A stretch of 64,000 bases of DNA, taken from positions 147,034 to 211,033 of the forward strand of contig JAGAKS010000016.1 in the NCBI GenBank assembly GCA_017625465.1. Reading direction: 5' to 3'. The notes under the pieces were generated by a model that saw only the letters and a list, made by a program, of their open reading frames with translations, was not told where the DNA came from and searched no databases. Source of the stretch: Clostridia bacterium. GTDB taxonomy: Bacteria > Bacillota > Clostridia > TANB77 > CAG-508. The position numbers and the translations under genes are program-made. Below, in pieces: positions 4,642-58,172 of the stretch. Position 1 is the stretch's first letter; every line of letters begins with the position of its first letter.

Positions 4642-6186
4642 ATGAAATTAAATTTAGATCAAAAAACAAAAAAGAATTTTAAACTATTACAATCTTGCTC
4701 TAAAGTAAAAATTATAGAGCTTACTGAAAAATTAATGCAATTAGAAAAAAAGCAAATTGGCCTTATTTCATCATCTGATGCTTTACATACTTTTCTTGAA
4801 GGTCTTTATCAAGATGAGCATAAATACGACAAGTCTGTAATTGTAAATCCTGATTATAGACAACTAACTACTGTTACTTTACCAAAATCTGATGAATTTT
4901 CACCAGATGAAGATCTTGCACAAGACTATAAAGAATATAGTTATCTTTCTAGAAATATTAGTGGATTAAGAAGAACTCTTGAGGAATATGAACACTTAAA
5001 TGAATTATTATCTACTCGTAAAGTTCCTGTACACGAACTAAATTCTTTTTTATCTTCTTCAAAACATACTAAAAGTTTTAAAAAATTTGCAGATTCTGCC
5101 AGAAAAGAACCTGCTATTGCTTTAAGTTTAAAATATAAAATGTTAGCTAATAGAATTGCTGAAAGAAATGGTATTGCCAATACTGTTTTTTATACTAATA
5201 CAGATTCAACATTTTCTATAAATGACCTTTCTTTATCTTTAAATAAAGATTTTAAAGGTAGAGCAATAAATACTGGTGCAAAAATGTTAGCCGGTCTTGC
5301 ACTTTCAGCTACGCTATATGGTGTAGGTTTTTCTCATGGAAAAAATGCTACACAAGTAACTCAAGGAACTACTGAACCACATACTATAGAAACTACAGTC
5401 GATGAAACATCTGATTATGGTGAGGGCGTTGAAAGTCCAAGTATATTTACAAATGGCGTACAAAACATTGATTCTTATGAAACTGCTTGTCAAGATTACT
5501 TTGAAAAAATATCAGACATATATGCTTATAATACTGGTGAAAGTATCGATTTGTCTAGATATGAGCAAGAAAATATTGGATGGAATAATTCTACTACTAT
5601 ATTTACAGTTAATAATAATGGTAAAACTTATAGAATTTCTGCACAAAGCCACGCTGGCTCTAATTTACAATATTTAAAACAAGCACTTGATGCTACTGGA
5701 CTAGAATATGAAGAAACAACTTCTGCTATTAGCTATATTGTTGATAAAAATGATTCTAGTCGTAGTATTGCTATAGCAGATAGCATAGGTAATCCAGTTC
5801 GTAGTGGAAATATTTTAAGCGGAAAAAACAACGCTTATAACCCACTTTATGTTGCAGGTGGTAGAGATATATTAGTTGCACAAGGTAGAGATGCAAGTAC
5901 ATTAACTGAAGCTGAATGTGTTGGAGCTTACATTACATCAGACCAATATAATATTCAAAATGATGAACTTTCTAGAGCTCTTGGTGAAGTTCAAAATCTT
6001 ACAAGATTCATCAAAAATTCTTTCTATTACAGCAGAAATGGAGAGTCTGATCCATACACAGTAGCTTTATATAGAAATAAATCTCGTAGCTTTGCAGAGG
6101 ACTTTGACGCAAGAATTAATGGACAAACTATAGAAACTCCATCTTCTGCAACAACACCAACTGAACAAGATAATAGCGAAAGATAG
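4642..6186 (+). CDS. Hypothetical single-pass membrane protein of 514 aa. It has a cytoplasmic coiled N-terminal half, one TM segment and an extracellular Ser/Thr/Asn-rich C-terminal half.
   Basis: The ATG at 4642 is preceded by GTGAGGAAAA. One hydrophobic segment is present (AKMLAGLALSATLYGVGF). It is a lone plus-strand gene among minus-strand operons. No family was recognised. Confidence 0.6.
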   Translation: MKLNLDQKTKKNFKLLQSCSKVKIIELTEKLMQLEKKQIGLISSSDALHTFLEGLYQDEHKYDKSVIVNPDYRQLTTVTLPKSDEFSPDEDLAQDYKEYSYLSRNISGLRRTLEEYEHLNELLSTRKVPVHELNSFLSSSKHTKSFKKFADSARKEPAIALSLKYKMLANRIAERNGIANTVFYTNTDSTFSINDLSLSLNKDFKGRAINTGAKMLAGLALSATLYGVGFSHGKNATQVTQGTTEPHTIETTVDETSDYGEGVESPSIFTNGVQNIDSYETACQDYFEKISDIYAYNTGESIDLSRYEQENIGWNNSTTIFTVNNNGKTYRISAQSHAGSNLQYLKQALDATGLEYEETTSAISYIVDKNDSSRSIAIADSIGNPVRSGNILSGKNNAYNPLYVAGGRDILVAQGRDASTLTEAECVGAYITSDQYNIQNDELSRALGEVQNLTRFIKNSFYYSRNGESDPYTVALYRNKSRSFAEDFDARINGQTIETPSSATTPTEQDNSER

Positions 6187-7237: not shown

Positions 7238-7800
7238 TATTTCCAAATTTCTCCTTCCGTAAATTCTTTTAATGTTTGCCATTTACCATCTTTTTCAGAT
7301 GTAAGTATTTCACAATCAACTTCTGGCCATTCAATTCCAATTTCAGGATCATTATACATAATTCCTGATTCTGCACTATGATTATATACATCTGTGCATT
7401 TATATGTAAACTCTGCTTCGTCAGATAAAACTAAGAAGCCGTGAGCAAAATATGGTGGTATATAAAACATTTTCTTATTTTCTTCTGAAAGTTCAACACC
7501 AACCCATTTACCATAAGTTGAGCTATTTCTTCTTAAATCAACTGCAACATCAAAAACTCTTCCTTTTATAACTCTAACAAGTTTTCCTTGTGTATTTTCG
7601 ATTTGGAAATGCAATCCTCTTAAAACACCTTTTTTAGATTTTGATTGATTATCTTGAACAAATTCTTCTTTTATTCCAATTTCTTCAAAATCTGGTTTAC
7701 TATATGTTTCCATAAAGTACCCTCTGTTATCTCCAAATACAGTAGGTTCTATTACACAAACACCTTCAATATCAGTATCAATTCTTTTAAATTTTCCCAA
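7237..7800 (-). CDS. rfbC: dTDP-4-dehydrorhamnose 3,5-epimerase.
   Basis: Cupin-fold RmlC signature (RGLHFQ...). It is the right size and sits in operon context. Confidence 0.9.
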   Translation of the reverse strand: MGKFKRIDTDIEGVCVIEPTVFGDNRGYFMETYSKPDFEEIGIKEEFVQDNQSKSKKGVLRGLHFQIENTQGKLVRVIKGRVFDVAVDLRRNSSTYGKWVGVELSEENKKMFYIPPYFAHGFLVLSDEAEFTYKCTDVYNHSAESGIMYNDPEIGIEWPEVDCEILTSEKDGKWQTLKEFTEGEIWK

Positions 7801-7814
7801 TTTCTTTACCCCTT

Positions 7815-8726
7815 TTATTTAAATAATTCACTATTATAAATATCTTTGTATGTATCCCAATCTTGTTCAGCAACTTTTTTCAAATATTTTCCATAGTCAG
7901 TCTTTTTATATTTTTCAGCATATTCTAAAATTGTTTCTTTAGAAATCCATTCGTTTCTATAAGCAATTTCTTCTAAGCAAGCAATTTGAACACCTTGTCT
8001 TAATTCTATAGCTTTAACAAAATCTGATGCATCAGATAATCTATCTGGAGAACCTGTATCAAACCAAGCATATCCATTACCTAAAGGAATAACTTGTAAT
8101 TTTCCTTTTTCCATATAAATTCTGTTAACATCTGTAATTTCTAATTCACCTCTGTCAGAAGGTTTTATTTCTTTAGCAATTTTAACTACTTCATTATCGT
8201 AGAAATAAATTCCAGGAACTGCTAAATTTGATTTTGGAACTTCTGGTTTTTCTTCAATAGAAATAGCTTTTCCAGATTTATCAATTTCAACAACACCATA
8301 AGAAGTTGGATCTGCAACTTGATATCCAAAAATAATTCCACCTTCTTTTAATTTGCTTGCAGCTTTTAAAACTCTTTCAATTCTTGAACCATAAACCATG
8401 TTATCTCCAAGAATTAATGCTACATTATCATCTCCGATAAAATCAGCACCTAATATAAAAGCATCAGCTAGTCCAACTGGTTTTTCTTGAACTTTGTATT
8501 CAAATTTCATTCCAAATCTTGAACCATCTCCTAATAAACTTTGGAATGCTGGTAAGTGAACTGGTGTAGAGATAATTAATACCTCTCTAATTCCAGCCAT
8601 CATCAATGTTGATAATGGATAATAAATCATTGGTTTGTCATAAACTGGTAACATTTGCTTTGAAACAGCTAATGTTATTGGATATAATCTTGTGGCACTT
8701 CCACCTGCTAAAATAATACCTTTCAT
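7815..8726 (-). CDS. rfbA: Glucose-1-phosphate thymidylyltransferase.
   Basis: The N-terminus GIILAGGSATRLYPIT matches the nucleotidyltransferase signature. The likely start is the internal Met MKGIILAGG. Confidence 0.9.
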   Translation of the reverse strand: MKGIILAGGSATRLYPITLAVSKQMLPVYDKPMIYYPLSTLMMAGIREVLIISTPVHLPAFQSLLGDGSRFGMKFEYKVQEKPVGLADAFILGADFIGDDNVALILGDNMVYGSRIERVLKAASKLKEGGIIFGYQVADPTSYGVVEIDKSGKAISIEEKPEVPKSNLAVPGIYFYDNEVVKIAKEIKPSDRGELEITDVNRIYMEKGKLQVIPLGNGYAWFDTGSPDRLSDASDFVKAIELRQGVQIACLEEIAYRNEWISKETILEYAEKYKKTDYGKYLKKVAEQDWDTYKDIYNSELFK

Positions 8727-43728: not shown

Positions 43729-46056
43729 TTAAAATTTACTATATTTAGTTTTAGGATACAAATTTTCTTCTAGATACTCATCTGTAAACTTAGCTTCTGC
43801 TTCTTTTTTAGCTTTTTCCTCTTCTTTTCTAATTCGTTCTTCTTCACGAATTTTAGCAAGTTCCGCTTCCTTTTTAGCCTTTTCTTCTGCCATTATCGCT
43901 GCTTTTTTGGCTCTTTCTTCAGCTATAATCGCTGCTTGCTTTGCTTTTTCTTCGTTAGCCAATCTTTTTTCTTCTGCTCTTTTTAATTTTTCTTCTTCTT
44001 TTTTTATGCGTTCTTCTTCTCTAATTTTCGCAAGTTCAGCATTTCTTATAGCTTTGGCTTCTGATTTAGCCTTATTTTCCTCTGCTTTAGTAACTTTATA
44101 TTCCTGATATTTTTTTGAAAATTCTTCTTTTTTTATTTTCATGTTTTCTGCTAATTCATTTTTCTTAACCAGCGCTTTTTCTTTAAATATATTAACTTTT
44201 TTATTCCATTCTTCTTTTCTTTGTGCCTTCTTTTCTAAATTTTCTTTTCGTTTAACAGCATTTTCTTCTTCTTTTTTCTTTTTCATTTCCATTTTCAAAG
44301 CTAATTCTTGTTCTTTTTTTAATTTATCTTCTTCACGTTTTTTAGCAAGTTCTGCTTCCCTTTTAGCTTTTTCTTCTGCCATTATTGCATCTTCTTTGGC
44401 TTTTTCTTCTGCTATAATTTTAGCTTGCTTTGACTTTTCTTCTGCAATGATTTGTGCTTGTTTAGCTTTTTCTTCTTTCTCTTGTTGCTTTTTCTGAATT
44501 TTTTCTATTTGGGCTTGTTCTTCGAATTGTATCTGTTCAAGTGTTTTGGCTGATGAAAGTCTTTTATTAAGAGTTTTTATCTTTCTTAAAAGATTTTTAA
44601 ACCATTGTTTTACCATATCTATTTTTTCTTTTTCAAACTTTATGCACTTTTCATACCATGACAATTTAATTTCATTAGAATAATAATAATTACTTATATA
44701 TAAATCATTTTCCATTGAAACTCCATTTAAAACAGTTCCAATTACTTTACCACCAACATTTTCTATATCTGTTTTTGCTTTTATTAAATTATCTTTTTTA
44801 GTTTTATTATATGATGCTACTAATAAAGTTTTTACAAGTAGTCTACTTAACAATAAAGAATCTGTAATTGGAAGAATAGGAGCACCATCAAAAATTACTA
44901 CATCATAATATTGCTTTAAATTATCAATTAGCTCCACTAATTTTGTTGATTCTAATAACTCTGCTGGATTTGGTGGAACACTACCAGCTGTTATTACATC
45001 TAAATTCTCTATATTAGTCTTTTTGATATATTCACCTAAATGCCAGTTTATTTCCATTCCATTAGAATCTATATTAGAAATATAATTAGAAAGTCCATTT
45101 TTATTTGGAATATTAAATACCAAGGCTTGTCTTCCACGTCTCATATCTGAATCTACTAAAACAACTTTTTTACCTGCTTGTGCAAAAGTAATAGCTAAAT
45201 TTGCTGATACATAACTTTTTCCTTCGCCAGCTAAACAACTAGTAACTAACAAAGTTTGTGCCCCTTTTGTATTTATACTGCTAAATTGCACATTCGTTCT
45301 TAGTGTTCTAAAAGTTTCTGATATTATCGATTTATTCTCTGTAAAAGTAATAATTTCACTTTTTTTCTTTTTGTCCAAAGGAATAGTTATCAAGTTTTTT
45401 ACTTTTAATATTTCTTCTATATCTTCTGCACTTTTTACTGTATTATCTAAAACATTATATATAAATACATACGTAGCAGCAATAATAATTCCTAAACAAA
45501 TAAATATTGTAATATCTCTACTATGATTTATATTATATGGCTCTGTTGGAACTGTTGGTTCATCTATAACATAAACATTATCAATTTTATAAATTTCTTT
45601 TACTTGTTCTGAAAAAACTTCTACTACTTTTGTAACAATATTTTTAGCCACTTGTCCACTAGGATTTGAAACTGATATTGCTAATAAATCTGAATTATTT
45701 ACTCTATCAACTGAAACTGATTCCATAAGCATTTCAAGGCTTATATCTACACCTAAATTATCTTTTACTTGCTCCATAATAGTTCTACTTTTAACTAATT
45801 CGCTATAAGTTAAAATCAAACTTGAATTAAGTGTTAAATCAGACTCTGTTATAGTACCATTATTATCTAAAGTTTGCCCATTAACAGAAGAACTAACTTT
45901 TCCCAAAATAATAGTAGCAGTAGAACTATATAGTGGTTTAGTATAATTATATGTATATACTATTCCTACAATAATTGAAATAACAATAATAGCAATAAGA
46001 CTTATCTTTTTTCTCTTTATTACTGTTAATAAATCTTTTAAATTTAGCTCTTCCAT
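43729..46056 (-). CDS. Capsular/exopolysaccharide co-polymerase fusion of a Wzz chain-length domain and a BY-kinase (tyrosine autokinase), with a roughly 310-aa Lys/Glu/Ala-rich repetitive C-terminal extension.
   Basis: Two TM segments flank a periplasmic Wzz-like region. Walker A (GEGKSYVSANLA), A' (VVLVDSDMRRG) and B (VVIFDGAP) motifs are present, and a Tyr cluster SNYYYSNE is followed by KAKQA/IIAEEKAK repeats. Confidence 0.85.
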   Translation of the reverse strand: MEELNLKDLLTVIKRKKISLIAIIVISIIVGIVYTYNYTKPLYSSTATIILGKVSSSVNGQTLDNNGTITESDLTLNSSLILTYSELVKSRTIMEQVKDNLGVDISLEMLMESVSVDRVNNSDLLAISVSNPSGQVAKNIVTKVVEVFSEQVKEIYKIDNVYVIDEPTVPTEPYNINHSRDITIFICLGIIIAATYVFIYNVLDNTVKSAEDIEEILKVKNLITIPLDKKKKSEIITFTENKSIISETFRTLRTNVQFSSINTKGAQTLLVTSCLAGEGKSYVSANLAITFAQAGKKVVLVDSDMRRGRQALVFNIPNKNGLSNYISNIDSNGMEINWHLGEYIKKTNIENLDVITAGSVPPNPAELLESTKLVELIDNLKQYYDVVIFDGAPILPITDSLLLSRLLVKTLLVASYNKTKKDNLIKAKTDIENVGGKVIGTVLNGVSMENDLYISNYYYSNEIKLSWYEKCIKFEKEKIDMVKQWFKNLLRKIKTLNKRLSSAKTLEQIQFEEQAQIEKIQKKQQEKEEKAKQAQIIAEEKSKQAKIIAEEKAKEDAIMAEEKAKREAELAKKREEDKLKKEQELALKMEMKKKKEEENAVKRKENLEKKAQRKEEWNKKVNIFKEKALVKKNELAENMKIKKEEFSKKYQEYKVTKAEENKAKSEAKAIRNAELAKIREEERIKKEEEKLKRAEEKRLANEEKAKQAAIIAEERAKKAAIMAEEKAKKEAELAKIREEERIRKEEEKAKKEAEAKFTDEYLEENLYPKTKYSKF

Positions 46057-48782: not shown

Positions 48783-50891
48783 TTATCTACCTATCTTTTT
48801 ACAATATTTTTCAAACATTGCTGCAGCTTCAGCTCTGGTTGCTGTACCTTTTGGATTCAAAGTCTTATCTTCATTGCCAGTAATTACGCCAGCTCCTACT
48901 GCCCATTTCATTTGATTTAATGCATAATTTGATACACTACTTTTATCTTTAAATGAATTTAACTCATTTATATGCCAGGTTGATTTTCCTTTATATTTAG
49001 CATAATTATATAATATTATAGCTAAATCTTGTCTAAGTACACTATCACCTGCACCAAAAGTACCGTTTTCATATCCATTAACAATTTTATTATCTGTTGC
49101 CCATTTTACTGCTTTATAATAGTATTTACGATTATCTTGAACATCTGGGAACTTTGGTGTTCCATTAACTGTAGGCTCACCTTCCATTCTATAAAGAATT
49201 GTTACTAACATCCCTCTTGAAAGCTCATTGCCTGGTACAAAAGTTGTTTTTGATGTTCCTGTAATTATGTAGTTTTTACTACAATATTTTACTGCTTCAT
49301 AATACCAACTATCTGGTGCTACATCTGTAAAAGATAAATCTGTTGTCTTTACATAATATACACCCTTAACACCCGTACCATCTTTAGCTGTAGCTGTTAT
49401 TGTAGATTTTCCAAGAGCTTTTCCTGTTACATTTCCAGAAGCATCTACTGTTGCAACATTTGTATCACTACTACTCCATGTTACATTTTTATTTGTTGCA
49501 TTACTTGGAGATACATTAGCTGTTAATTTTGTAGTTGTACCCAAAGGTACAATTGAATTTCCAGTTATATTTATTGAACTTACTAAAGTTCTATCTATAT
49601 ATTCATTTGGTGTTGAACTACCAGAATTACTTCCTTGTCCTATTGTTTGTATGAAATTTCTAGCAACATAACCTGTAAGACCTTTTCCATCAGTTCCATC
49701 AGCAATAACTAAGTCCCAGTAATATCCTCCACTTTGCACATTTCCTCTTGATAATACTTTTACATTTACTCCTTGTGCAATACTGCCTATGTGTGCAGAA
49801 GTTATATCTTGTCTTGAACGCACTTTTAATCCACCATTTGCTGTAACTTTTGCTATATCATAAGTTATTGAATTTACAGTAGCCGTACTAGGTCTTGATT
49901 GAGCTGTTACAGGCATATTAGTATATAAAGGAATTATAAAAGTATGGTTTCCAGTTATTTGCCCATTTATTTTATAGTTATCTCTTAATTTTCTTCCTTC
50001 ATTTTCAGCTGATAAAATACTTTGCGCATATTGATGTGAAAACAAACTTGGTTCATGTACTACATTAAATTTTTGATAATAACATGTGTTTTGTCCTCTA
50101 CCTATATACTCCTCTTTACAGAATTTTGCTCCACCTAAGATTGATAATCTTTTAGTTGTCCAACCTTCTTCTGCTGCTTTATTTGTACCATTTGTGATTA
50201 TAGCAGATATACTATTTCCATAAGCCTCAATATTAAAAAAATTATAATATGTAACACCATTTTTTACAACGCCATCACTTAAAGTAGAACCATCTCTACC
50301 ATGCTCTGTAAGCATTTTAGCAACTAAATAATAGCCATTTATGTTATATGCTTGGCTAGCCTCTACTATTGCTCTAGCACACTCCTCGTGATCTAAGAAA
50401 GTACCAGCAATAACTCTTACTACATCATCATAAGTAACATCTGGTGATTCTAAACTTTTAAATTGAAAAACACTATCATCAGAAATAGAATTTCTAGGAT
50501 CCATCATATATTTTAAAGCTTCCATTGAAGCACAACGTAAACTTCCATTATCATAAGATTTTGTGCCACAAACTGGGCAAAACCACATTCCAGAATATTT
50601 TTCGCCTACATTAAATAAATTTTTTGGAGAAGCACCATGCCCTTGATATTCACGAATTATCGCTTCATTCCAATCAATTCCTGTATTATAGAATTGAAAA
50701 TTATAACCTGAATGTGCATTTTTTAAATTATTAACCATACCAGAAATTCCTGGACACATTCTTTCTGCATCACTTATTGATACATATTGTCCTGCATTAA
50801 CAATATTTCCAAGCCCTTCAAAAGTTGATAATATTATATATAAAGACATTATTAAAATTAGAGTAATTGAAACTATTCTTCTTAATTTCAT
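48783..50891 (-). CDS. Secreted cell-wall hydrolase with a GH73-like glucosaminidase domain, an SH3b-like domain, a Big_2 domain and three C-terminal SLH repeats.
   Basis: A signal peptide is present. MLTEHGRDGS...YYNFFNIEAY resembles the GH73 catalytic region. VTWSSSDTNVATV indicates Big_2. There are three roughly 55-aa SLH motifs. Confidence 0.65.
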   Translation of the reverse strand: MKLRRIVSITLILIMSLYIILSTFEGLGNIVNAGQYVSISDAERMCPGISGMVNNLKNAHSGYNFQFYNTGIDWNEAIIREYQGHGASPKNLFNVGEKYSGMWFCPVCGTKSYDNGSLRCASMEALKYMMDPRNSISDDSVFQFKSLESPDVTYDDVVRVIAGTFLDHEECARAIVEASQAYNINGYYLVAKMLTEHGRDGSTLSDGVVKNGVTYYNFFNIEAYGNSISAIITNGTNKAAEEGWTTKRLSILGGAKFCKEEYIGRGQNTCYYQKFNVVHEPSLFSHQYAQSILSAENEGRKLRDNYKINGQITGNHTFIIPLYTNMPVTAQSRPSTATVNSITYDIAKVTANGGLKVRSRQDITSAHIGSIAQGVNVKVLSRGNVQSGGYYWDLVIADGTDGKGLTGYVARNFIQTIGQGSNSGSSTPNEYIDRTLVSSINITGNSIVPLGTTTKLTANVSPSNATNKNVTWSSSDTNVATVDASGNVTGKALGKSTITATAKDGTGVKGVYYVKTTDLSFTDVAPDSWYYEAVKYCSKNYIITGTSKTTFVPGNELSRGMLVTILYRMEGEPTVNGTPKFPDVQDNRKYYYKAVKWATDNKIVNGYENGTFGAGDSVLRQDLAIILYNYAKYKGKSTWHINELNSFKDKSSVSNYALNQMKWAVGAGVITGNEDKTLNPKGTATRAEAAAMFEKYCKKIGR

Positions 50892-51068
50892 ATTTTTCCT
50901 CCTTTTTAGTCATCATTTGCATTTTACTCTAATTAGTATATATGTATTTTCGACAAAAGTCAAACCTTTTTAAGCAGTATATTTATTAAATTTTCTCGAT
51001 TTTTAAAGAAAAAACTTACTAATTTTTACTAGTATTTGACATTATGCTTTTTTATTTTTATATGCAAC

Positions 51069-51120
51069 AAAAAAAGCAATGAATAATCATTACTTTTTCA
51101 TTTCGTTGGAGCTCTCAGCC
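51069..51120. repeat. Direct repeat A: a copy of the last 14 nt of tRNA-Thr plus its roughly 37-nt terminator, with 51/52 identity to 54661..54712.
   Basis: By-eye alignment gives AAAAAAGCAATGAATAATCATTACTTTTTCATTT[C/T]GTTGGAGCTCTCAGCC. Confidence 0.8.
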
Positions 51121-51304
51121 TTACTCAACAGCTTAGAAATATTGATTTCAAGCCTTTTTCATTTAAAAAAGGAGTAAATTGGGAGCAGTAATTATAATTT
51201 TTAATAATCCTATAAAATTTTGTATAGCTTTATTTATCATAATGTCATAAACATACATGTAATTTGTCTTATATTATAAAACTGTATTTTAATTATGTTA
51301 AATC

Positions 51305-51730
51305 TTAAAAAATATTAATTTCACTATCTAAAATCGTAGTAATAAATAAATCCATATCATTGTGCAATTCCTCTTTTCTTTCAATTACTTCCATTAAAGA
51401 ACTCTCTTGTAATTCGTGAACAATTTTATTTCTTAACACTCTTACAGCTTTTTCTCCTCTCTTGTCAGTTTTTGACCATAATCGTGTGAGTAATTTAGGA
51501 TTATTAAAATTTATTTCATAAAAAGAAATTGCTTTTTTAATATCATTTAAAGAACATGGTATTGTTTCTTCTTCATATTCCTCCCCTATTAAATCTAAAT
51601 ATTTTTTTATAATTTGTTTACAAATAATTTCACATTTAATATATTTCTCTAAAAATTCAAATACAACCGTTCTATTATTATCAGTATTTAAAATATTATT
51701 TGCTCTTTCAATTATTTTATTTATTTTCAT
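51305..51730 (-). CDS. Hypothetical protein of 141 aa with a possible HEPN-like Rx4H motif (RNKIVH).
   Basis: It is an ORF inside the tRNA-flanked islet. The motif is at VLRNKIVHEL. The assignment to HEPN is an inference. Confidence 0.4.
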   Translation of the reverse strand: MKINKIIERANNILNTDNNRTVVFEFLEKYIKCEIICKQIIKKYLDLIGEEYEEETIPCSLNDIKKAISFYEINFNNPKLLTRLWSKTDKRGEKAVRVLRNKIVHELQESSLMEVIERKEELHNDMDLFITTILDSEINIF

Positions 51731-52129
51731 TGTTACCTCATTTTTTATTCTTATATTAATCCGACAACTTACTATTTATCTATGCTAATTTATATCATAA
51801 AAGCACTCCTTTGACTAGTCATATTTATAAATATTATAAAGAGCTAAAAACTTCGCTCTTTTTATGATTTTATCTTTCTTTCAAATCTTTATATACTTGT
51901 CTTGCAAAAGCATATAATTCATAACTTTTTATCCATTTCAGCATCATGCAATAATACTTTTGCCATTTTTTCTTCAAGCATTTCTTATTTTCCCTTTTCT
52001 TTTAATTCTTCAAATAATAAATTGATTTTTAAAATTCCATAACTGATTATGTATTGAAAGTTTTACAGTTTAAGGATGCTAATATTATAAATTAAAAAAA
52101 GACAAATTTACAATACTCAAAATTAGAAA

Positions 52130-52969
52130 TTATACTTTAATACTATTATTCAATTTATTTTTTACATTATATAAAATAGCAAATACAATTCGCTTAGGAC
52201 TTGGTTTGTATAAACTATATTCTCCTAAATATTCTAATAATTTCTTTTCTTCGCACTCTATGTATAACATATTAACTGCATAGCTGATATTACTCTTTAT
52301 ATTACTTATTTTTTTATGATATTTTTCTGCAATAATAGGATAAATGTCAGTTTCTAAGTTAATATTACAATCATTTTCTAAATTATACGCTATATAAATT
52401 GTATCAATTAAATATGTAACTCCTCTATACGATATTGTTACATTTAAGTATTTTAATTCATTTTCTATTGCTTTTACTACAGCATTATTTCTTGTTAATG
52501 ATGAGTAAAAACTTTTTTCTATTATTTTGGTGGTAGCTAATTTATTCACAATATTACTAATTGTTTCCATATCATTTTGTATTTCTATAAACGCATATAC
52601 ATCTAAATTTTCTTTACTATTAATTAAATGTTGATTAGAAATTACTATGGTAGATTTCAAATAAAATTGTAGCATTTTGTTCTCTTCTAAAATTTTATAA
52701 TCGATAGAATCAGAGTTTATTAATATTATATCAATCGTAGTACTTTTACTAACGTCATATAATTCCTCCAATTCTGTAAGTAATCCAGCTACTCTTAAAT
52801 TATTATTTTTACTATTTAAAAAGTTAATTAAATATCTAGAATAATCAAAATCTTTGCTAATTATCACAATATTTATCATACTATAATCCTCCATATATAT
52901 ATTAGACTGTTTTTTATATAAAAAAAGTTGCAAAAAATTATATTTTTTTGCATTATTATTCATCGTCAA
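52130..52969 (-). CDS. Spo0A C-terminal-domain-like transcription regulator with a degenerate receiver-like N-terminal half.
   Basis: The C-terminal 110 aa align by eye to the Bacillus Spo0A_C domain. YLNVTISYRGVTYLIDTI corresponds to HIKGYLYLREAI, IYPIIAEKYHKK...AVNMLY corresponds to LYPDIAKKFNTT...AIEVAW, and KPSPKRIVFAIL corresponds to KPTNSEFIAMVA. Confidence 0.6.
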   Translation of the reverse strand: MTMNNNAKKYNFLQLFLYKKQSNIYMEDYSMINIVIISKDFDYSRYLINFLNSKNNNLRVAGLLTELEELYDVSKSTTIDIILINSDSIDYKILEENKMLQFYLKSTIVISNQHLINSKENLDVYAFIEIQNDMETISNIVNKLATTKIIEKSFYSSLTRNNAVVKAIENELKYLNVTISYRGVTYLIDTIYIAYNLENDCNINLETDIYPIIAEKYHKKISNIKSNISYAVNMLYIECEEKKLLEYLGEYSLYKPSPKRIVFAILYNVKNKLNNSIKV

Positions 52970-53172
52970 AAATTATTAAAATATTTCAAATATATCGTTC
53001 TTATCTATCTAACTTGATAATCTAAAATAGAAATTATGGAATTCTCATCAAAAAAGCACCAAATTTAAGTTAATAAAAATTAGGAACAACATTAAAGTTG
53101 TTCCTAATTTTTATTAATTTAAATATGAAATTTAATAATAAAATATTCTTATTTATTTACAATTAAATATCT

Positions 53173-53643
53173 TTAATTATATGTATAAGAACCATAAGCA
53201 TTAACATTATAATCTTTATATATAGTCATATATATATATACAGTTGTATTGTTACTGCCTATTTCATTCGCTGTCCAACTAATAGATTGCATAGAATTGT
53301 TTGGTACGCTATATGTAGGTCCAATTACAGTTACTTTGTCACTTTTAAATAAACATACTTGCATAGTATATCCACTTGTTTGTGTTACATTTAATGTTAT
53401 TCCACCATTGCTTGAACGATTTACTTTTATTAGTTTTGAATGATTAAAAGTATAATTGAACGGAACAACAGCTCTTTCTCTTTCACTTATTGTTATTTCT
53501 TCTGGTGTTAAATATGGTATCATTTCTTGAGCATCTTCAACAATTGACATTTCTTCTGTTGCTTGGCAAGCAATTGGAAAATATATAATTGTTGTTAAAA
53601 TCATTACTACAGTAATTATTTTTTTTACAATATTCATACACAT
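53173..53643 (-). CDS. Small secreted protein of 156 aa.
   Basis: A signal peptide is present and the body is Ser/Thr/Asn/Tyr-rich. Confidence 0.45.
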   Translation of the reverse strand: MCMNIVKKIITVVMILTTIIYFPIACQATEEMSIVEDAQEMIPYLTPEEITISERERAVVPFNYTFNHSKLIKVNRSSNGGITLNVTQTSGYTMQVCLFKSDKVTVIGPTYSVPNNSMQSISWTANEIGSNNTTVYIYMTIYKDYNVNAYGSYTYN

Positions 53644-53865
53644 TTACCTCCTAAAATTTTAAGAATATTTTATCACAATATTATGATATCAAAAATAATA
53701 ATATTAGTATCAAAAAGATAAAAAAGTTTCAAAAGTTGTAAAAGTTTAAAAATACAAATATTTAAATTTATAAAAAGCATCTATATTTGTTGAAAAGAAA
53801 AATAGTTATATGATATAATAATTAAAAATGTTTATGTCTTGAATTAAACTCAAAAGGGGGATTTT

Positions 53866-54564
53866 ATGAAAAAATTTATATGTTCAATTATTATTTTAAT
53901 TATTTTGTCAATTACTTTTTTGACCATTCGAGAAATAAAAATTAATACACATGAAAAAATAGATAATTCTATGACAATGTCTCAAGATGATGTGTTAGAA
54001 TTACTAAAAAAAGGAGCTACATATAATAATTATTCTAGAACACGAATAAATAATGAAAGTAAAGAAGAACTGTTCTATAAAGATGGTATTTTAGCTTCTT
54101 ATTTAGATTCTAAAATTCAATACTGGATGAACTTATCTAATGAAAACAAGGAAATGATACTATTTAATAATGAAACAGCATCCATTATCGAGGATTTTGA
54201 AAATATCGAATTTTCAAACGAGTTTTCTCAATTAGGATATTATATTGCTATATTTGATACAAATAATTTCAATTTTGAATATATTGGAAAAACAACTATA
54301 AATGGTAGAACTACTATTATTGCAAAAAGTGTTTCAAAAGATAATAATTTTTCTAAAATGGAATTAAAATATTATATTGATGAACTTACAGGAGTAGTTA
54401 TAAAAAGAATTAATACTTTTAAATTTCTATGTATAACAAAACAAACTCAAAGTTTTGATAGAGGAATAAAATTTGACAATGTTACAGATGAGCAAATAAG
54501 AAAACCAAACTTAAATGATTATGAAATTGATACATCTCATTTTCCATCTTTAGAAATATGGTAA
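53866..54564 (+). CDS. Secreted or membrane-anchored hypothetical protein of 232 aa.
   Basis: An N-terminal signal anchor is present. RBS GGGGGA precedes the ATG. Confidence 0.5.
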   Translation: MKKFICSIIILIILSITFLTIREIKINTHEKIDNSMTMSQDDVLELLKKGATYNNYSRTRINNESKEELFYKDGILASYLDSKIQYWMNLSNENKEMILFNNETASIIEDFENIEFSNEFSQLGYYIAIFDTNNFNFEYIGKTTINGRTTIIAKSVSKDNNFSKMELKYYIDELTGVVIKRINTFKFLCITKQTQSFDRGIKFDNVTDEQIRKPNLNDYEIDTSHFPSLEIW

Positions 54565-54660
54565 AAAGGTACTTATAAGTACCTTTTTTATCTTTCTTTT
54601 AAATCTACATATATTTGTTATGCTAAATGATAATTCTCATGAATAGTTTTAAAACAAAAT

Positions 54661-54712
54661 AAAAAAGCAATGAATAATCATTACTTTTTCATTTTGTTGG
54701 AGCTCTCAGCCA
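54661..54712. repeat. Direct repeat B: the tRNA-Thr 3' end plus terminator, the partner of 51069..51120.
   Basis: See repeat A. Confidence 0.8.
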
Positions 54713-54773
54713 GAATCGAACTGGCGACCCCAGCCTTACCATGGCTGTGCTCTACCTACTGAGCTATGGGAGC
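54698..54773 (-). tRNA. tRNA-Thr (anticodon GGU) with an encoded CCA.
   Basis: A hand fold gives D-arm GCTCAGTAGGTAGAGC, anticodon loop ATGGTAA, T-arm GCCAGTTCGATTCTGGC and acceptor GCTCCCA/TGAGAGC with one C-A mismatch. Confidence 0.75.
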
Positions 54774-57290: not shown

Positions 57291-58172
57291 TTATGCTCTT
57301 GGATGAGCTTTATTATATATATCTTTTAAATTTTCTTTTTGAAATTGCATATATACTTGTGTTGAAGAAATATCAGAATGTCCAAGCATTGATTGAACAG
57401 CTTTTATTTCTGCACCATTTTGTAAAAGATGTGTTGCAAATGAATGTCTTAAAACGTGTGGTGTAATGTCTTTTGAAATATGTGCTTGTTCTTTATAAAA
57501 TTTAACAATTTTCCAAAAACCTTGTCTTGTAAGTCTTTTACCATTTACATTAACAAATAAAGCTTCTGTTTTATCATCTTTTATTAAAATTGGTCTAGCT
57601 TTTTCAATATATTCTGTTAATGCTTTCATTGAAATTGAACCTAATGGAATGTTTCTCTTTTTGAAGCCTGTATCACAAACAACAAAAGATTCTTTCATAT
57701 TAACATCAGAAATATTTAAAGAAATAATTTCAGTAACTCTCATACCTGTAGCATACGCAAATTCTAACATTGCCTTATCTCTAATACCTTTTAAATCTAC
57801 ATTGCTTGGTTGTTCTAATAAAAGCTCTACTTCTTTTGCTGTTAATATGCTAGGAACTTTTTTCTCAACTTTTGGTGATTGAACTCCAATAGTTGGATCT
57901 TTTTTTATTTTTTTAGTTTTTACTAGAAATGTATAGAAAGATCTAATAGTAGCTAAATTTCTAGATATTGTTGAAGTTTTTTTGTTAAGTTTTTTTAGAT
58001 GTTCAAAATATTTATCTATATCATCACTATCTACTTTTAGATAGTTAATTTTATTTTCTTCAATGTATTCTTGATATTGCAATATATCTCTTTTGTAAGA
58101 TTGTAAAGTATTGTTAGATAATTTCTTATCGTTTTCCAAAAAGTCTAAAAATAGTTTGATTTGTTTTTCCAT
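57291..58172 (-). CDS. xerD: Tyrosine recombinase XerD.
   Basis: C-terminal R..HxxR..Y catalytic residues are present (HVLRHSFATHLL...TQVY). It is linked to spoIIM as in many Clostridia. Confidence 0.8.
   Translation of the reverse strand: MEKQIKLFLDFLENDKKLSNNTLQSYKRDILQYQEYIEENKINYLKVDSDDIDKYFEHLKKLNKKTSTISRNLATIRSFYTFLVKTKKIKKDPTIGVQSPKVEKKVPSILTAKEVELLLEQPSNVDLKGIRDKAMLEFAYATGMRVTEIISLNISDVNMKESFVVCDTGFKKRNIPLGSISMKALTEYIEKARPILIKDDKTEALFVNVNGKRLTRQGFWKIVKFYKEQAHISKDITPHVLRHSFATHLLQNGAEIKAVQSMLGHSDISSTQVYMQFQKENLKDIYNKAHPRA

Follow-up and report, generated by a model that had tools for sequence, protein, structure and literature searches.

How does a block of four accessory genes come to lie between two copies of the end of a tRNA gene when no recombinase gene accompanies it? 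This question is raised by a 3.5-kb islet in the genome of an uncultured gut Clostridia bacterium (assembly GCA_017625465.1, contig JAGAKS010000016.1). We analyzed it within a window of 64,000 nucleotides (64 kb; positions 147,034 to 211,033 of the contig), to which all coordinates without a locus label refer. The islet lies directly downstream of a tRNA-Thr(GGU) gene, and it is very likely that foreign DNA was inserted there by recombination at the tRNA gene's 3′ end and its terminator, duplicating that segment. As to the kind of element involved, our favored reading, to which we assign a probability of roughly 0.45, is that the islet is a non-autonomous remnant flanked by attachment (att) sites, of the type known as a cis-mobilizable element (CIME; defined in PMC5704250), that is, an integrative or conjugative element that has decayed, located at a hotspot of repeated insertion.

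The tRNA-Thr repeat

ARAGORN called a tRNA-Thr with anticodon GGT on the minus strand at 54698-54773, and Rfam scored it as a tRNA at 62.8 bits, which confirms the tRNA-Thr(GGU) named in a first-pass annotation of this DNA. Between 49000 and 57000, a repeat finder returned a single outstanding direct repeat, 51053-51120 / 54644-54711 (68 nt, 88%, spacing 3591). By direct reading, its near-perfect core, 51069-51120 against 54660-54711, is identical at 51 of 52 positions, the figure given in that annotation. The sole mismatch pairs 51104 (plus strand C, tRNA strand G) with 54695 (plus strand T, tRNA strand A). The annotation had placed the first interval correctly and the second one base off, at 54661-54712. 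The features that define the insertion are the following.

54698..54773, minus strand: intact tRNA-Thr(GGU), whose last 14 nt (54698-54711) are part of the proximal repeat copy
54660..54711: tRNA-proximal repeat copy, attL-like, made of the 14-nt tRNA 3′ end and a 38-nt hairpin terminator, with a degenerate extension to 54644
51069..51120: distal repeat copy, attR-like, made of a displaced 14-nt tRNA fragment and a copy of the terminator, with a degenerate extension to 51053
51121..54659: islet proper, 3,539 bp, a mosaic of one-gene modules that holds four genes but no recombinase

In the core, the terminal 14 nt of tRNA-Thr (GGCTGAGAGCTCCA), which cover the final 3 nt of the T-stem and the acceptor strand with discriminator and CCA, are followed by 38 nt of downstream sequence; the tRNA part had been described as such, whereas the downstream part had been put at about 37 nt. 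The displaced fragment is in direct orientation, the same as that of the intact gene, and the 14 tRNA bases of the repeat are identical to the T-stem variant of this species itself. The downstream half of the core forms a strong hairpin followed by a U-tract, with predicted RNA folds of -24.4 kcal/mol for the proximal copy (z = -5.5, 21-bp stem) and -17.2 kcal/mol for the distal copy (z = -3.6). An intact tRNA gene with a displaced, direct 3′ fragment is the geometry used for mapping tRNA islands (PMC4383910).

Neither part of the core is common in the surrounding DNA. A 33-nt part of it occurs exactly twice in the window with 3 mismatches allowed (0 expected from shuffled sequences), as does the 14-nt tRNA piece with 2 mismatches allowed (0.06 expected). 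A dispersed or common terminator family, which the first-pass annotation had named as one of the findings that would undo its proposal, is therefore ruled out as the source of the repeat, and the repeat is genuine. The DNA that it brackets is compositionally foreign: the G+C content of the islet is 21.7%, whereas the window has 27.9% and the flanking genes have 28-33%.

One further similarity touches the distal copy. With TTAC adjoining the tRNA fragment, the stretch CAGCCTTAC (GTAAGGCTG on the tRNA strand) at 51116-51124 also matches the anticodon loop and stem at 54731-54739. The distal fragment could once have extended to the anticodon loop and later have been shortened by a loss of 24 nt between two GGCTG repeats; the match adds no more than 4 bases, which may be due to chance.

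The same terminator in related species

To place the islet in context, we compared 23 related loci, anchored on the sigma factor gene next to tRNA-Thr. The interval between tRNA-Thr and ychF is hypervariable, differing in every species examined, and neither the islet nor a displaced tRNA fragment was found in the compared loci of related species. Representative arrangements are as follows.

L003, L037: ychF starts about 50 nt past tRNA-Thr
L004: ychF starts about 200 nt past tRNA-Thr
L010, L013, L039, L041, L043: 3.4-4 kb of unrelated genes past tRNA-Thr (membrane protein, Ldh and others)
L002, L035 (two strains of a sister species, sigma factor 94% identical): methylase gene and a gene for a 1,050-aa SLH protein, followed in L035 by an orthologue (75%) of the hydrolase gene that flanks the islet

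The sister species is the most informative. Directly 3′ of its tRNA-Thr lies a hairpin with an identical stem and a different loop, which identifies the terminator half of our repeat as orthologous host chromosomal sequence. The two sister strains are 97-99.5% identical to each other, and L035 carries an extra 773 bp immediately 3′ of the orthologous tRNA-Thr terminator where L002 presents an empty site with a single hairpin (L002:7622-7680). A HEPN protein (PF05168, E = 1e-16) is encoded there together with an MNT nucleotidyltransferase (PF18765, E = 4e-14), the two forming a pair of toxin-antitoxin type; the insert contains no recombinase. It is flanked by a duplication of the hairpin with 27 of 28 positions identical (7726-7753 / 8499-8526), and the duplicated segment includes no tRNA bases. 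The occupied and empty alleles indicate that insertion with duplication of the terminator is recurrent at this position and polymorphic.

Details of the L035 duplication bear on how the insertion was resolved. The second hairpin copy differs from L002 at several positions in or just past the hairpin, whereas the surroundings are about 98% identical, which suggests that the HEPN-MNT cassette brought its own hairpin and that the exchange was resolved at TATAT just 3′ of the U-tract. In our repeat, the variable base is A in the proximal copy, in agreement with the sister species, and G in the distal one; this would be compatible with the same geometry, on the strength of one base. Because the terminator half is orthologous and the duplication in L035 comprises the hairpin alone, the crossover region seems to be the terminator and not the tRNA. 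The first-pass annotation had remarked that identity reaching so far into the terminator was unusual for an att core, and this concern proved justified.

Three neighboring genes frame the comparison on the side of the window.

48783..50891, minus strand: cell-wall hydrolase carrying SLH and Big_2 domains and weakly matching glucosaminidase (Pfam), with the 75% identical orthologue in L035
54783..55433, minus strand: sigma-70-family sigma factor (Sigma70_r2 and r4_2, Pfam), just upstream of tRNA-Thr, the comparative anchor
57291..58172, minus strand: XerD-type tyrosine recombinase (Pfam), 2.5 kb from the islet

The region upstream of the hydrolase gene (approximately 51027 to 50883) is orthologous to its counterpart in the sister species (alignment score 79, shuffle maximum 46), so the distal flank is native chromosome. 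On the other side, the sigH-rny-xerD-spoIIM block is 88% identical in sister strain L002, which lacks the islet; xerD is thus a chromosomal housekeeping gene outside the islet, as the annotation had supposed from its spoIIM context. It is also the only tyrosine recombinase detected in the window when XerD was compared by phmmer with all ORFs (open reading frames) of at least 100 aa.

Two observations concern other parts of the sister locus and of the window. At L035:8915-10884, a gene for an Eco57I-type N6-adenine methylase precedes a 192-aa ORF, and the two may form a restriction-modification pair; at L002:7860-9302 a deletion of about 738 bp joins the methylase and 192-aa frames into one 480-aa protein, which suggests that the system has been inactivated in that strain. 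Elsewhere in our window, a 775-aa ORF at 43729-46056 has a C-terminal half of long K/E/A-rich repeats (AEEKAK..., ELAKIREEE...) and an N-terminal half that, by reading, may resemble a capsular-polysaccharide chain-length regulator or a tyrosine kinase.

Islet genes and their nearest relatives

The islet contains the following genes and sequence features.

51305-51730, minus strand: p141, an all-helical protein of 141 aa with an RNKIVH (Rx4H) motif and no Pfam family
52130-52879, minus strand: Spo0A_C-like regulator of 249 aa with a C-terminal DNA-binding domain (Pfam PF08769)
53173-53643, minus strand: p156, a small orphan protein with an N-terminal hydrophobic signal or anchor
53866-54564, plus strand: p232, weakly matching LolA_like and with a membrane anchor or signal at its N-terminus
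51868..51920: degenerate internal copy (about 81%) of the islet-side arm, between the p141 and regulator genes, with its counterpart at 54586-54636
54586..54636: islet-side arm beside the proximal repeat, 3′ of the p232 terminator hairpin (54563-54588)
53060..53127: palindrome of 34+34 nt without a spacer, 91% complementary, between the p156 and Spo0A_C-like genes

The gene content agrees with that given in the first-pass annotation, four ORFs that include a Spo0A_C-like regulator and two small proteins, called secreted there, which have an N-terminal signal or anchor. PF08769 matched residues 138-227 of the regulator at 35.8 bits against a gathering cutoff of 25 (E = 8.6e-9), and its N-terminal region reads as receiver-like. 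The LolA_like match of p232 fell under the Pfam cutoff (E = 0.0045), and p156 had no family match in Pfam or PHROGs and no homologue in any fetched locus. Scans with Pfam, PHROGs and PADLOC revealed no recombinase, transposase, transfer, int or xis domain in the four ORFs; there is no further ORF longer than 46 aa between the repeats, and the annotation was right that the repeats enclose no recombinase. No non-coding RNA was detected in the islet, Rfam finding the tRNA alone. The palindrome at 53060-53127 looks like a bidirectional terminator and is far longer than normal ones.

The annotation's remaining suggestion, a possible HEPN-motif protein, stands as far as the motif is concerned: p141 carries R100-N-K-I-V-H105, and R100 and H105 are invariant across 12 homologues. 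p141 had no Pfam HEPN match and no sequence match in the PDB, the PADLOC profile CARF_HEPN scored E = 0.021, and the AlphaFold2 model, all-helical with a pLDDT (predicted local distance difference test) score of 65.8, drew no significant Foldseek match, the HEPN toxins 6m6w and 8xdj appearing at E = 6-8. To call p141 a HEPN protein would be a guess.

The nearest relatives of the cargo lie in unrelated settings. The p141 module (51261-51781) comprises the gene and about 45 nt on either side and is sharply bounded, with no repeats or hairpins visible at its edges; further copies lie at L045:9941-10476, L057:1085-1620 and L056:1-476. It has 92% DNA identity to a chromosomal locus of a very common human-gut Clostridia species, in which the p141 copy sits between GNAT/Fic and dCMP deaminase/PolA genes with no tRNA nearby. 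It is also 90% identical to copies that have RadC-LPD11 and DUF3991-Toprim genes as neighbors, as is typical of conjugative elements; the p141 homologue in that context shares 89% identity, and the two sets of copies are 96% identical to one another.

The Spo0A_C-like module (52129-52948) has 77-79% DNA identity to genes inside loci resembling integrative and conjugative elements (ICEs). The closest homologues of the regulator (66-68% identity) occur in two such loci from gut metagenomes, L018 (1-20750) and L021 (1-16653), which belong to contigs of 58 kb and 31 kb, along with genes for a VirB4/TraG-type ATPase, a sortase, a CHAP hydrolase, an ABC transporter, an ECF sigma factor with a DUF4179 anti-sigma factor and a Y-family polymerase; more distant copies adjoin ECF sigma/anti-sigma pairs. 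In the parts fetched, the ICE-like loci with close relatives of these two cargo genes contain no tRNA-Thr and no copy of the 52-bp core. The p232 module (53785-54591) is 79% identical to a gene of L055 in an unrelated ABC-transporter context, and a distant-mode search of plasmid and phage collections with the whole islet matched the tRNA and nothing else. Two of the four islet genes thus have their nearest relatives in conjugative-element-like DNA, which fits the option of a decayed integrative element.

The islet may also record how it was assembled. Local alignment of 51868-51920 with 54586-54636 gave a score of 51, against a mean of 23.7 for shuffled sequences (standard deviation = 3.7, maximum = 39), and the internal arm copy may be the trace of a two-step tandem accretion. 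Tandem accretion has been described for arrays of CIMEs and of integrative and mobilizable elements (PMC5704250). A degenerate core beside the internal arm copy is not claimed, its alignment score being 29 and the shuffle maximum 40.

Routes to the islet

In our favored reading, a small islet of horizontally acquired accessory genes would have recombined into tRNA-Thr(GGU) at its 3′ end and terminator. This event would have restored the tRNA end beside the gene and pushed a second copy of tRNA end and terminator to the far side, leaving attL/attR-like repeats. A site-specific recombinase presumably made the insertion, and its gene would then have been lost, or the enzyme acts in trans; the islet probably grew by accretion, possibly in two steps. 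If still mobile, the islet would depend on RecA working on its repeats or on a recombinase provided in trans.

We favor a CIME-type remnant because of the displaced tRNA fragment, the ICE-related cargo, the internal copy of the arm and the polymorphic insertion in the sister species. Like CIMEs, the islet is a small island without integrase or transfer genes between direct repeats that contain a tRNA 3′ end; attL and attR are kept while int, xis and conjugation genes are missing, a likeness by structural criterion only. Kinship of some genes with conjugative-element-like DNA and the possible trace of tandem accretion add to this likeness. Unlike CIMEs, the islet is not known to have a cognate ICE or an integrase that shares its att specificity, its repeat reaches far into a host-specific terminator, and its cargo is a patchwork with no recognizable truncated ICE backbone. 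The tRNA islands mapped by Islander (PMC4383910) offer a similar comparison: they share the intact tRNA gene, the displaced direct 3′ fragment and the compositionally foreign DNA between them. However, our islet fails the integrase filter of that method, 3.5 kb is very small for such an island, and the tRNA part of the repeat is just 14 nt and starts in the 3′ strand of the T-stem, whereas the usual crossover classes center on the anticodon or T-stem region.

Several results weigh against integration by a dedicated element. No integrase lies within or next to the islet, and no integrase-bearing element was found beside this tRNA in approximately 10 related loci. Viral contigs (exact hairpin scan), plasmids, phages and the fetched parts of the ICE-like loci yielded no attP-like copy of the core. 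The core runs 38 nt past the tRNA into a host-specific terminator that has its orthologue in the sister species, and any attP brought in by an element would have had to match this host almost perfectly over 52 bp. The L035 duplication has no tRNA bases, which for the sister species rules out a crossover targeted to the tRNA. The cargo, a patchwork of unrelated single-gene modules, forms no coherent element. Finally, no conspecific empty site was found. When the islet proteins and those of ychF, the sigma factor and the hydrolase were looked up as exact matches, only the source metagenome-assembled genome and short Logan contigs came back, the latter breaking at the repeat, and each recorded contig that encodes this species' sigma factor or hydrolase contains the islet as well, in a very small sample. 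A 3.6-kb contig of the islet occurs in SRR12529196 and in other samples. Genome and metagenome scans with the sigma factor yielded no second strain of the species, and no circular form of the islet was found. The junction expected for an empty allele is ...GGCTGAGAGCTCCAACAAAATGAAAAAGTAATGATTATTCATTGCTTTTTTTGTTGCATATAAAAATAAAAAAGC and that for a circular form is ...CTGTTGAGTAAGGCTGAGAGCTCCAACGAAATGAAAAAGTAATGATTATTCATTGCTTTTTTATTTTGTTTTAAAAC. The first-pass proposal of att-type integration, in which a decayed element was one option beside a satellite mobilized in trans and an element using a host recombinase, is thus supported in part: the repeat, a foreign islet missing from relatives and ICE-linked cargo speak for it, but an integrase-bearing element and an attP were not found.

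One candidate source of an attP was considered and rejected. The hairpin of the sister species (the 25-nt core of the second L035 copy) matched a phage-like contig, L044 (IMGVR_UViG_3300031994_000322), where it is a plain gene terminator. The match is likely due to chance, since a terminator made of an A-tract, a 7-bp stem, a GAAA loop and a T-tract has few free positions. The intervals L044:128-431 and 4896-4920 hold this terminator match, a tRNA-Trp and a CTA-anticodon (amber-reading) tRNA named Pyl by ARAGORN, and the last of these hints at stop-codon recoding in the contig.

The points that weigh against a dedicated element are in large part those that favor capture by homology at the hotspot. 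In this alternative, circular or linear DNA carrying a near-identical copy of the terminator, for example from the same locus of a related strain, would integrate by a RecA crossover with no dedicated recombinase; the terminator, alone or together with the tRNA end, would provide a short stretch of portable homology, and the cassette could be deleted again if the repeats recombine. The repeat is indeed host sequence, with a hairpin orthologous in the sister species and tRNA bases matching the species' own T-stem variant. It also differs between species, being 52-68 nt with tRNA bases here and approximately 28-45 nt of hairpin only in L035, as would be expected of homology-based events and unlike a fixed att core. 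Neither insertion comes with a recombinase, the cargo is mosaic, and the differences among the two L035 copies and L002 suggest that the cassette carried its own hairpin and was resolved at the 3′ edge of homology. The missing integrase element and attP, the long host-specific identity and the hairpin-only repeat of the sister species point the same way. On the other hand, repeats of 28-52 bp are near or under the length at which RecA recombination is efficient, the first acquisition of this host's terminator by an unrelated cassette is left unexplained, and a displaced tRNA fragment is the textbook outcome of site-specific integration. We regard capture by homology as the chief rival, less likely than our favored reading but weightier than any other alternative.

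A different possibility is that the tRNA-Thr terminator hairpin is itself a cassette-capture site in these gut Clostridia. Hairpin-carrying, recombinase-less cassettes, namely the HEPN-MNT pair in the sister species and the p141/Spo0A_C/p156/p232 mosaic here, would enter at its 3′ edge, duplicating it in the process, by way of a hairpin-directed mechanism provided in trans. Taken as one joint claim, we consider this improbable. Two known systems invite comparison. In integron cassettes and attC clusters without an integrase, a cassette is likewise followed by a hairpin site, insertion reproduces the hairpin on both sides, and toxin-antitoxin cargo occurs, as in the sister cassette. In our case there is no IntI, the hairpin is a plain perfect terminator hairpin of 28-44 nt, and the islet is multi-gene, with genes in both orientations and a promoter and terminator of their own for each. 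Direct reading found no GTTRRRY at either boundary and no attC architecture, so that the locus lacks the defining sequence features of an integron cassette and this interpretation was rejected. The dif modules and integrative mobile elements exploiting Xer recombination (IMEXs) of Acinetobacter plasmids (PMC6449649, PMC7399989) are also small recombinase-less cassettes with short palindromic bounds, toxin-antitoxin pairs among them, for which host recombinases have been proposed. However, nothing dif-like is present in the hairpin here, the repeats copy a terminator in direct orientation instead of forming alternating XerC/XerD-oriented sites, and the islet is chromosomal and located beside a tRNA.

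Equally doubtful is a local duplication followed by insertion, in which slippage or unequal exchange would have copied the tRNA end and terminator in tandem and foreign DNA would have accrued between the copies by illegitimate recombination. The islet is built of independently derived modules, which accords with stepwise accrual, and the locus appears prone to duplication, judging from a tandem copy in L035 immediately upstream of the insertion. There, at L035:7400-7661, 131 nt comprising the spacer between sigma factor and tRNA and the first 23 nt of tRNA-Thr are duplicated (98%), leaving a 5′ tRNA fragment upstream of the intact gene; the duplication is either real or an assembly artefact. 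Against this account, at least two independent events would have had to hit the duplicate junction exactly, in two species, a bare tandem duplicate of the terminator was seen in no strain, and 51/52 identity demands a recent duplication or gene conversion.

The weakest alternative is a module of the IMEX or dif type, with host XerC/XerD acting on the palindromic hairpin to mobilize the cassette: although such recombinase-less, Xer-flanked modules are known from Acinetobacter plasmids (PMC6449649, PMC7399989), xerD lies only 2.5 kb away, and the hairpin formally parses as two 11-nt inverted arms around a 6-nt center (11-6-11), any 28-nt hairpin with a 4-nt loop parses in this way, the arms (AAAAAGTAATG / CATTGCTTTTT) do not resemble TTATGTWAA, the conserved XerD arm, matches to a dif-like pattern number 14 in the window versus 12.5 expected, with none at the repeats, and xerD belongs to a syntenic housekeeping block that is also present in the islet-free relative, so that a Xer/dif site at the repeats is ruled out on sequence and the account as a whole is very improbable.

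Taken as a CIME-like remnant, the islet is an ordinary genome scar of a known type, an integrase-less islet beside a tRNA. Through it, the stretch from tRNA-Thr to ychF stands out as a gene-flux hotspot in an uncultured lineage of gut Clostridia, and integrase-based finders such as Islander would miss islets of this type. The more useful lead is that two sister species carry different recombinase-less cassettes at the same terminator hairpin, with the hairpin duplicated, and that one of these cassettes is polymorphic between near-identical strains. If a dedicated mechanism, as opposed to decay or RecA, lies behind this pattern, it would provide a testable route for the spread of small toxin-antitoxin and regulator cassettes in Firmicutes. 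To our knowledge, Firmicutes lack integrons; should the hairpin truly be a capture site, it would represent a functional Firmicutes analogue of integron and dif-module systems, building small defence and regulatory islets beside a tRNA gene.

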